A stretch of DNA of 64,000 bases from Nannocystis pusilla (GTDB taxonomy: Bacteria > Myxococcota_A > Polyangia > Nannocystales > Nannocystaceae). The position numbers and the translations under genes are program-made. Shown one piece after another: positions 29,814-31,124 of the stretch. Positions within the stretch are counted from its first letter, which is position 1. Every line of letters begins with the position of its first letter. The DNA lies in the NCBI RefSeq assembly GCF_049060185.1, contig NZ_JBMEQO010000002.1. One strand, 5' to 3'. The notes below the pieces were generated by a model that worked only from the letters and a program-made list of their open reading frames with translations, was not told the origin of the DNA and made no database searches.

Positions 29814-31124
29814 ATGTTGCGTACCATTCTTGTGTTGTTCCCCGCGCTCGCGTTCTCGATGCCCGTCACGGCGACGGCGTCGGACGAAGCTCGGTGGGGA
29901 GGTAGCCACCAGGGCTACGGTCAGAACGAACTGCTCGAGCTCGAGACCTGCCTGGCCGAGGTGGAGCAGCTGACGCAGAACCGCTCGTGCACGATCCTCG
30001 ACGCCGACGAGTGCCTCGCCGCGTGCGACGTGGCGGCGGACTCCGGCGACGCCGGCCGCTGCCGCAGCGCGTGCTCCGACGCGGGCGTGGCGATCTGTGA
30101 CCGCTGGGGCGGCAATCAGGGCTTCGGCCAGGACGTCGATCAGGGCTTCGGCAAAGACGTCGGAAAGCACGTCTATCCCGGCCAGGGCGTGATGCCGGGC
30201 AAACCGACCGGTCAGGGCGTGGACCTCGACCAGACCATCGGCAAGGGCGACATGGGCCAGGGCTTCGGCAAGGGCGACATGGGCCAGGGCATCGGCAAGG
30301 TCGAGGAGGAGCTGCTGCAGGAGCTCGACCAGGACCTCGACCAGAACATCGGCAAGATGGTCGAGGAGGACCTCGAGCAGGAGATCGTGCAGGAGCTCGA
30401 GCAGGACCTCGATCAGACCATCGGCAAGGACGTCGGCAAGAACATCGGCAAGAACGTCGGCAAGCTCGAGCAGGACCTGGAGCAGGACATCATGCAGCAG
30501 CTCGAGCAGGGCCTCGAGCAGAACATCGGCAAGACGGTCGAGCAGGAGCTCGTGCAGGAGCTCGTGCAGGATCTCGACCAGAACATCGGCCAGGACCTCG
30601 AGCAGGACCTCCTGCAGGACATCGAGCAGGAGCTCGGCCAGACGATCGGCAAGCACGTCGGCAAGAACATCGACCAGGATCTCGAGCAGGAGATCCTGCA
30701 AGAGCTCGACCAGACGATCGGCAAGCCCGGCTTCACCAAGCGCTGGGGTAACCAGCAGGGCTACGGCCAGCAGGGCTTCGGCAAGGACTACGACCAGGGC
30801 TTCGGCAAGGACGTCGACCAGGACTTCGGCAAGGACGTCGACCAGGGCTTCGGCAAGGACGTCGACCAGGGCTTCGGCAAGGACGTCGACCAGCACTTCG
30901 GCAAGGACTACGGCCAGGGCTTCGGCAAGGACCAGACCATCGGCAAGCCGGGGTTCGGTAAGCGCTGGGGCAAGCCGGGCTACAACCAGGGCTTCGGCAA
31001 GGAGCCCACGCCGGTCACCCCGGGCCAGTTCGACCAGGAGCTGGTGTACGTGGTCGGCTCGGAGTGCGCGATGCTCGTGACGCAGGGCGTCGGCAAGGGC
31101 GTCGGCAAGCACGTCGGCAAGTGA
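29814..31124 (+). CDS. secreted highly repetitive protein (GFGKDVDQ and QELEQDLDQNIGK repeat families)
   Basis: A good RBS (gagaaggaaaccctcccATG) in a lower-GC upstream region. Signal peptide MLRTILVLFPALAFSMPVTATA. Cys-rich N-domain, then ~12 x (D/E)L(E/D)Q..(Q)NIGK and ~10 x QGFGKDVDQ repeats. The opposite-strand ORF 29703..31262 is spurious. Confidence 0.7.
   Translation: MLRTILVLFPALAFSMPVTATASDEARWGGSHQGYGQNELLELETCLAEVEQLTQNRSCTILDADECLAACDVAADSGDAGRCRSACSDAGVAICDRWGGNQGFGQDVDQGFGKDVGKHVYPGQGVMPGKPTGQGVDLDQTIGKGDMGQGFGKGDMGQGIGKVEEELLQELDQDLDQNIGKMVEEDLEQEIVQELEQDLDQTIGKDVGKNIGKNVGKLEQDLEQDIMQQLEQGLEQNIGKTVEQELVQELVQDLDQNIGQDLEQDLLQDIEQELGQTIGKHVGKNIDQDLEQEILQELDQTIGKPGFTKRWGNQQGYGQQGFGKDYDQGFGKDVDQDFGKDVDQGFGKDVDQGFGKDVDQHFGKDYGQGFGKDQTIGKPGFGKRWGKPGYNQGFGKEPTPVTPGQFDQELVYVVGSECAMLVTQGVGKGVGKHVGK

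Follow-up and report, generated by a model that had tools for sequence, protein, structure and literature searches.

Transglutaminases use disordered, accessible Gln residues, and involucrin, the SPRR proteins and loricrin, the precursors of the cornified envelope, are substrates of the keratinocyte transglutaminases. Among bacteria, the spore-coat protein GerQ of Bacillus subtilis is said (in work attributed to Ragkousi and Setlow in 2004 and to Monroe and Setlow in 2006) to be cross-linked by Tgl via Lys and Gln into an insoluble outer layer. A further group, the GP42-type transglutaminases, occurs in oomycete cell walls and is the source of the Pep-13 immune elicitor. Here we describe a gene that may belong in this company. 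It lies on the plus strand at 29814..31124 of a 64,000-nucleotide stretch of Nannocystis pusilla DNA (contig NZ_JBMEQO010000002.1 of RefSeq assembly GCF_049060185.1; hereafter the window) and encodes a repeat protein of 436 amino acids (aa). The repeat protein is real, orphan and genus-restricted, is predicted to be secreted, and combines a regular design of tetrads ending in Gln or Lys with a suggestive enzyme neighbour, namely a GP42-type transglutaminase. The reading that we favour, tentatively and in the awareness that it may well prove wrong, is that this protein serves as a disordered scaffold of Gln donors and Lys acceptors, which the neighbouring transglutaminase would cross-link into an insoluble extracytoplasmic layer.

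The open reading frame (ORF) sits exactly where an earlier sequence-only reading had placed it. Its G+C content (GC) at codon positions 1/2/3 is 0.70/0.33/0.945, and in a sliding frame plot the phase with high third-position GC (GC3) is held unbroken from start to stop, which identifies the plus-strand ORF as the coding frame. A 519-aa ORF on the minus strand (29703..31262) was rejected as a shadow of the repeat gene, as the GC3 signal sits in the plus frame. From start to stop, the gene can be divided as follows:

29814..29879, plus strand: predicted Sec-type signal peptide (by inspection), aa 1-22, MLRTILVLFPALAFSMPVTATA, followed by SDE
29880..30101, plus strand: N-terminal module with seven Cys, aa 23-96, starting with RWGGxxQGYGQN; its Cys are invariant in 11 orthologues
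30102..30299, plus strand: Gly-rich tetrad region, aa 97-162, delimited by tetrad parsing
30300..30725, plus strand: acidic tetrad region, aa 163-304, with (D/E)-Φ-x-Q runs closed by (N/T)IGK or VGK
30726..31001, plus strand: GFGK-DVDQ octad array, aa 305-396, opening with PGFTKRWG and closed by PGFGKRWGKPGYNQGFGK
31002..31124, plus strand: C-terminal motif ELVYVVGSECAML with the eighth Cys, followed by the GVGKGVGKHVGK tail and the stop codon

By inspection, the signal peptide that had been claimed from the sequence shows all the hallmarks of Sec export, that is, a basic n-region (R3), a hydrophobic core (residues 4-15) and an A-x-A cleavage site (A20-T-A22, then S23). It is laid out as MLR / TILVLFPALAFS / MPVTATA, then SDE, and its first 14 residues are identical in 11/11 orthologues. 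The mature protein is strongly acidic, with 79 acidic (D+E) versus 37 basic (K+R) residues and a net charge of about -42; seven Cys are located at residues 46-95 and an eighth at 418. The repeats are equally visible at the DNA level, where Tandem Repeats Finder reported a 27-nucleotide (nt) unit (2.6 copies) and a 24-nt unit (2 copies) in the Gly-rich region, a 12-nt period (26.9 copies) in the acidic region with 12/24/36/72-nt periods over 30317-30726, and a 24-nt unit encoding GFGKDVDQ at 30771-30932 (6.8 copies, 92% identity). Motif counts for the whole protein are 9 GFGK (11 [GDH]FGK), 9 IGK and 7 VGK among 29 GK in total, as well as 11 [DE]L[DE]Q, which rise to 26 acidic tetrads in a wider form. 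RWG occurs at residues 27, 97, 310 and 384, in two of the four cases as PGF(G/T)KRWG.

The sequence-only reading had distinguished two short repeat families. Both repeat types are indeed present, but they obey a single rule and are one design, as residues 97-436 parse into 73 tetrapeptides of the form x-Φ-x-(Q/K) that cover 292 of 340 residues (against 46.3±2.3 tetrads, with a maximum of 53, in 1000 shuffles). The four positions and an example are:

tetrad position 1: D, G, E, T or N
tetrad position 2: hydrophobic L, I, V, F, Y or M in 67/73
tetrad position 3: G, D or E
tetrad position 4: Q (43) or K (30)
example of a tetrad peptide: DVDQGFGKDVDQ

The Gly-rich region, for instance, whose length differs among orthologues, reads RW GGNQ GFGQ DVDQ GFGK DVGK ... 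DMGQ GFGK DMGQ GIGK. Successive Gln/Lys residues are spaced by exactly four in 58 of 78 intervals, with the same spacing in all 11 orthologues, and the hydrophobicity power spectrum of the protein peaks at a period of exactly 4.0; GFGK, DVDQ, NIGK, DLEQ, ELVQ and HVGK are therefore variants of one x-Φ-x-(Q/K) unit. Of 30 Lys, 29 belong to a G-K pair, which in 27 cases is preceded by F, I or V ([F/I/V]-G-K).

When 5.8 billion proteins were searched, four true homologues were returned, each of them from Nannocystis or from a related metagenome, and a genome scan seeded with the neighbouring gene yielded six more repeat-gene loci (N. radixulma, Nannocystis sp. RBIL2, N. exedens DSM 71, N. punicea, N. 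pusilla Na p29, and N. bainbridge). Comparisons over 11 loci hence refer to the window plus 10 other Nannocystis loci, the closest of which is RBIL2 with 94.6% nucleotide identity across the locus; orthologues were found solely in this genus and related metagenomes. All 11 gene copies are intact and encode 348-447 aa, each with 8 Cys, 36-54 Gln and 24-32 Lys, almost all of the latter in GK. Since the same architecture and intact frames recur in ten independent assemblies, the repeat array is genuine, which also disposes of the concern that resequencing might expose it as an assembly artefact. Variation in repeat copy number between strains, which had been proposed as a check, is plainly there: unit types and copy numbers differ even among close relatives, and orthologues at 93-94% amino-acid identity are separated by indels of 2-28 residues, all in frame. 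Among more distant species, the units themselves are replaced. The GFGKDVDQ octads of the window's clade correspond to YEQGIGK/HEQGFGK in one clade and to DLEQEFDQ in another, while PGFGKRWGK is kept in every orthologue. Through this turnover, Q/K/G are conserved at 93/92/93% among close orthologues and at 78/76/72% among distant ones, where other abundant residues reach 28% (D), 33% (V), 22% (N) and 0% (T), figures that stem from alignments of repeats and are thus biased towards matching the commonest residues. The retention of Q, K and G while unit sequences are swapped is what one would expect of a protein in which composition and spacing count, and not a fold or a peptide product.

The latter point bears on the idea that the protein, like a neuropeptide precursor, is a polyprotein whose cleavage after GK or KR yields a multitude of short secreted peptides. 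Such a precursor would be in keeping with the presence of 29 GK and two conserved KR sites (GF[GT]KRWG), set apart by acidic spacers, but the predicted peptides are wholly different between species (DVDQGFGK, YEQGIGK, HEQGFGK, DLEQEFDQ) and no protease is conserved at the locus. We know of no cleavage pathway of this kind in bacteria and, because the unit sequences are not conserved, give the idea hardly any credence.

Searches for described families likewise gave no foothold, in keeping with the remark in the sequence-only reading that the repeat was unfamiliar. The best Pfam-A match of the repeat protein scores 19.4 bits against a cut-off of 23, with all matches being compositional; NCBIfam returned nothing below E 0.07, including no precursor family; and a search of PDB sequences found only a coiled-coil neck repeat (E 9e-4) and no meaningful match. 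An unrelated ENA metagenome protein (P0005, 319 aa) carries (GKDVDQGQ)x6, near-identical to the GKDVDQGF octapeptide of the window, which appears to reflect convergent low complexity and not homology. AlphaFold2, run on the full protein with a five-sequence alignment, gave no fold (mean predicted local distance difference test, pLDDT, of 31.5), and helices were placed in the acidic region only, at pLDDT <40; the models thus fit a disordered, low-complexity protein. This predicted disorder would leave the 43 Gln and 30 Lys of the tetrads accessible, in a region modelled at pLDDT <40, and in this respect supports a transglutaminase substrate.

The two ends of the protein may behave differently from its middle. 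An exhaustive HMMER search with the Cys module returned only the Nannocystis orthologues and two short-form relatives, P0129 (178 aa) and P0132, which share the signal peptide, the Cys module and the C-terminal motif ([DE]L[IV][YF]V..EC.[MA]L; ELVYVVGSEC in the repeat protein vs LIFVNVEQC) and contain a KPGKKP-type linker instead of the tetrad array. In the AlphaFold2 model of P0129, the Cys module reaches pLDDT 61-78 and the C-terminal strand about 70, with the linker below 45, and the model matched no PDB fold. These predictions suggest that both ends of the repeat protein form one small domain, with the tetrad array as an expanded loop. To place the short forms in a wider genomic context, metagenome contigs were scanned by protein pattern, which found nothing, and with a 17-nt leader/start pattern, whose 17 matches were all due to chance and included no member of the family. 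One short-form locus (L084, a 1.2-kb JGI contig) ends 22 nt into a downstream ORF starting with MSSAQSS, which resembles the transglutaminase N-termini MSFTIPSSSS / MSVSITSSSS.

Retention of the conserved, probably folded Cys core in short forms that lack the tetrad array suggests that the core serves some function in itself, for which binding is a possibility. It could be argued that, instead of supplying the enzyme with building material, the repeat protein regulates the transglutaminase, be it by docking to it, by competing as a decoy substrate or by inhibiting it. We consider this improbable, as the protein shows no similarity to a known transglutaminase pro-domain or inhibitor and a 340-residue array of Gln and Lys seems excessive for an inhibitor.

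The enzyme in question was absent from the sequence-only account, its gene being disguised in the window by three 1-nt deletions. It is described by the following line:

31721..32977, plus strand: gene for a GP42-type transglutaminase (PF16683) lipoprotein, from Pfam, tblastn and alignment

In all 11 loci (11/11), a PF16683 gene follows the repeat gene on the same strand at a distance of about 600 bp. The Pfam model TGase_elicitor (PF16683) matches two fragments of the window gene with 221.6 bits (E 1.8e-65) and 54 bits (E 1.5e-14), respectively, at a cut-off of 25, and the orthologue P0007 matches PDB entry 3tw5, the structure of the Phytophthora GP42 transglutaminase, with E 4e-69. The catalytic Cys-His motif is kept in the window (GICHAWAPAA), and C181 and H182 are invariant in 17 diverse PF16683 members; this unusual catalytic pair of the family has been described (PMC10318531). 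By inspection, the transglutaminase carries a lipobox (LSAC), so that together with the signal peptide of the repeat protein both products are predicted to be extracytoplasmic.

As defined relative to three related Nannocystis genomes, the three frame switches in the window copy (from tblastn) each correspond to the loss of 1 nt from a homopolymer run of C or G (at about 31944, 32126, and 32216). They belong to a larger set of deletions private to the window, six of them within 2.9 kb (31249, 31944, 32126, 32216, 33206, and 33313) and another at about 27436 that frameshifts a radical S-adenosylmethionine (SAM) gene, almost all in G, C or T homopolymers. Owing to this clustering in homopolymers, the frameshifts are probably sequencing errors, caused by systematic under-calling of homopolymers in the assembly, rather than marks of a pseudogene. 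A similar number of private indels was seen in the locus of N. pusilla Na p29 (L010).

Taken together, these observations allow a mechanism to be sketched. The repeat gene would encode a Sec-exported, strongly acidic and largely disordered scaffold, in which the N-terminal seven-Cys module, probably together with the C-terminal ...YV..EC.ML motif, would form a small disulfide-rich core. This core would bracket a fast-evolving array of about 73 tetrads displaying 43 Gln and 30 Lys at a fixed four-residue spacing, so that both Gln (acyl-donor) and Lys (acyl-acceptor) sites might be offered to the GP42-type transglutaminase lipoprotein. The enzyme would then link molecules of the repeat protein through ε-(γ-glutamyl)lysine bonds, and the product would be an insoluble extracytoplasmic layer, for which matrix, slime, spore or sporangiole coat are candidates. 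In its most specific form, the proposal is of a dedicated enzyme-substrate pair in Nannocystis, a GP42-type transglutaminase and a 'bacterial involucrin', with an array that isopeptide bonds would zip into a covalent layer outside the cell or associated with the spore; whether so complete a picture is correct seems doubtful to us. We infer the enzyme-substrate relationship, the cross-linked product and its deposition site from evidence that is circumstantial throughout.

The transglutaminase substrate is nonetheless our favoured reading because of the strict Gln/Lys periodicity, the preferential retention of Gln and Lys while the rest of the array drifts, and the shared compartment and invariant pairing with an enzyme of the right chemistry. 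The matrix, adhesion or spore-associated role suggested in the sequence-only reading is sharpened to a specific, testable proposal, since a single tetrad rule and a transglutaminase next door are found in every genome with the repeat protein. Several points weigh against it. Export signals on both proteins (by inspection) and adjacency in 11/11 loci speak for a common compartment and linkage, but the pairing is limited to one genus and sits inside a generally syntenic block; as the whole right-hand flank (transglutaminase, Thr-rich lipoprotein, methyltransferase, TetR, and Coq4) is syntenic, adjacency is weak evidence. At 68 more distant PF16683 loci, paralogues in N. exedens and N. radixulma among them, there was no Gln/Lys-rich neighbour. 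Moreover, the repeat and transglutaminase genes look like separate transcription units on account of the hairpins between them, neither protein has a recognisable export signal beyond the periplasm, and the alignment bias in the conservation figures has to be borne in mind. Finally, no substrate, role or demonstrated activity of a bacterial PF16683 enzyme was encountered in the literature searched, in which there was likewise nothing on a Nannocystis transglutaminase or on transglutaminase cross-linking in myxobacteria.

Much of this would also be accommodated by a secreted, intrinsically disordered acidic structural or hydrogel protein (for matrix, slime, adhesion, or Ca2+ binding) that is not enzymatically cross-linked at all and next to which the transglutaminase is merely syntenic. 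A chain with no fold, a net charge of about -42 and evenly spaced F/I/V-G-K units is consistent with such a gel, as are the fast repeat turnover between species, the separate regulatory regions and terminator hairpins between the two genes and the distant transglutaminase loci that have no such partner. What it leaves unexplained is the Q or K at each fourth residue, kept while acidic and hydrophobic positions drift, and we rank a gel of this type second, as possible if on balance unlikely.

The noncoding sequence around the two genes is conserved to a degree that deserves separate description. Three elements stand out:

29490..29813, plus strand: conserved region upstream of the repeat gene with its 5' leader, from the 11-locus alignment
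31178..31257, plus strand: two G+C-rich hairpins after the stop codon, with 15-bp and 10-bp stems, terminator-like and with no T tract
31575..31720, plus strand: highly conserved stretch of about 150 nt upstream of the transglutaminase gene, from a 10-locus alignment

About 330 bp upstream of the repeat gene can be aligned in the 11 loci and are more conserved than the coding sequence itself, with the last ~125 nt of the leader (29690-29813) being almost invariant. Here, the leader contains a possible hairpin (about 29767-29792) and an AAGGAA Shine-Dalgarno sequence (29800-29805), which lies 8 nt before the ATG and is conserved, so that the strong ribosome-binding site noted from the sequence is borne out. 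The postulated lower-GC promoter fares less clearly: the conserved upstream region makes it plausible, and GC does drop to 0.59-0.61 at 29640-29810, but neither a sigma-70 nor a sigma-54 consensus was found upstream of the gene. The leader is partly kept even in the distant short-form locus L084 (212-339), including the possible hairpin and a CCCTCCC directly before the ATG. Rfam gave no match to the leader, and RNAalifold returned a covariation term near 0 from an alignment with too little variation. The post-stop hairpins were found as inverted repeats and fold with a z-score of -6.1; both stems are kept in 10 loci, with one pair varying between UA, UG and CG. A repeat gene with its own conserved leader and terminal hairpins fits a structural protein that is made in larger amounts than the enzyme. 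Upstream of the transglutaminase gene, a small ORF (31589-31672; 27 codons, MRGCRSTLRDDRSASMSLPRTQRRSCR) follows a strong GAGAGGAG Shine-Dalgarno sequence. As the L005/L001 clade does not keep its stop codon, this ORF may represent a leader or a regulatory RNA and not a gene.

On the upstream side of the repeat gene, two further features have to be considered:

23797-25695, minus strand, and 25768-28037, plus strand: divergent radical-SAM/SPASM genes
28040-28234, plus strand: conserved 64-aa ORF with two CxxC pairs, adjoining the radical-SAM genes

One of the radical-SAM genes encodes a B12-type domain fused to the radical-SAM/SPASM domain, and the pair lies 1.8 kb upstream of the repeat gene in the window. 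Repeated three-residue motifs are typical substrates of radical-SAM/SPASM maturases, and the best NCBIfam matches of the two genes are to peptide-maturase types (HxsC4/HxsC, with WgkB among the weak ones). It is therefore conceivable that the repeat protein is a multi-core precursor of ribosomally made peptides with post-translational modifications (RiPPs), whose Φ-G-K / W-G-K motifs are modified by these upstream enzymes. However, the matches are generic and fall far below curated cut-offs (106 vs 500 bits), and the upstream flank is not conserved: depending on the genome, 0-5 unrelated genes separate the radical-SAM/SPASM cluster from the repeat gene, and the cluster is absent within 10 kb in L002 and was not among the 5.3 kb (L003) or 4.3 kb (L005) of available upstream sequence. 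Furthermore, the protein has a Sec signal peptide in place of a leader peptide, its unit sequences differ between species, it matches no NCBIfam precursor, and the cluster has its own adjacent 64-aa CxxC ORF, with which it may constitute an independent peptide-modification cluster that has a small substrate or partner of its own. We have rejected the link to the radical-SAM genes on grounds of unconserved synteny and generic family matches, and a RiPP precursor is accordingly highly improbable.

The closeness of the radical-SAM genes to the repeat gene in the window results from deletions that left only a remnant of a PQQ-repeat gene. This remnant, a 110-aa ORF with coding-like GC3 at 28361-28684, has 55% identity to residues 248-356 of a gene product that is encoded at full length at the same position in L002, L003, L006 and L007; loss and gain of genes are concentrated in the zone between cluster and repeat gene. 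The earlier statement that the upstream 1.5 kb holds no convincing genes is largely right, with no codon periodicity at 28700-29800; the PQQ-repeat remnant and the 64-aa CxxC ORF lie upstream of this interval.

GP42-type transglutaminases are common in myxobacteria and other bacteria, and our survey found 166 relatives and 127 genomic loci. N. exedens (L009) and N. radixulma (L011) each have a second PF16683 paralogue elsewhere with no repeat gene; at the former, a Thr-rich lipoprotein gene is located upstream on the opposite strand. In the window, the gene after the transglutaminase (33269-34462) encodes such a lipoprotein (lipobox ASGC) with a Thr-rich linker of about 130 residues and a C-terminal domain of about 220 aa, for which no Pfam or NCBIfam family was matched. 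It stands 3' of the transglutaminase gene at every locus whose sequence reaches that far, and could be a third member of the same system.

Should the cross-linking proposal be true, the repeat protein would be the first physiological substrate of the bacterial branch of the PF16683 transglutaminases and provide their first assigned function. It would also mean that the cornified-envelope strategy of animals had been reinvented convergently, account for the way in which these myxobacteria construct a protein layer with covalent cross-links, and furnish a natural, highly repetitive and self-polymerising transglutaminase substrate with possible use in biomaterials. If it is not true, the protein would be an unusually regular case of a fast-evolving low-complexity secreted protein. 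Either way, a Gln or Lys at every fourth residue beside a GP42-type enzyme offers a cheap and concrete handle on an uncharacterised bacterial enzyme family.

How the locus relates to described systems depends on the level of comparison. For the enzyme, there is homology: Phytophthora sojae GP42 (PF16683; PDB 3tw5) and the product of the downstream gene have the Cys-His motif and an extracytoplasmic location in common, with the Nannocystis protein differing as a bacterial lipoprotein of about 400 aa. For the repeat protein, some resemblances concern composition or motif style. Nucleoporin FG repeats (GLFG / FxFG), whose chains can form cohesive gels, likewise place many Phe-Gly units (11 [GDH]FGK plus GFGQ in the repeat protein) between hydrophilic spacers in a disordered chain. 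The likeness is one of composition only, as in the Nannocystis protein Phe is interchangeable with Ile, Val and Leu, G-K and Q are invariant, the spacers are strongly acidic, and the setting is extracytoplasmic and bacterial. The precursors of radical-SAM/SPASM RiPPs (His-Xaa-Ser HxsA, Gly-rich repeat TIGR04260, three-residue cyclophane 'triceptides', and WGK peptides) also have multiply repeated three-residue motifs; unlike them, the repeat protein has a Sec signal peptide and 436 aa, and neither its cores nor its maturase adjacency are conserved.

Involucrin-type proteins come nearer, in that short tandem repeats with an abundance of Gln, Lys, Glu and Gly make up disordered or loosely helical chains, with lineage-variable copy number and with donor and acceptor residues on one chain that is capable of forming a network. 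They differ in sharing no sequence homology with the repeat protein and in period, which is 10 in involucrin and 4 here; the Nannocystis protein, for its part, is bacterial and Sec-exported with a Cys-rich core, its presumed enzyme has a GP42 fold and is not of the factor XIII/TG2 type, and its cross-linking is a proposal only. GerQ and Tgl would by analogy be the bacterial counterpart of a structural protein with a dedicated transglutaminase, although GerQ has no tetrad repeat and is not encoded beside tgl, whose product is a minimal cytoplasmic/coat enzyme that bears no relation to PF16683, and a role in sporulation would be conjecture for the repeat protein. By analogy, then, and with homology to neither, the involucrin-type cornified-envelope precursors and the GerQ/Tgl pair of Bacillus would be the closest functional analogues of the Nannocystis repeat protein.

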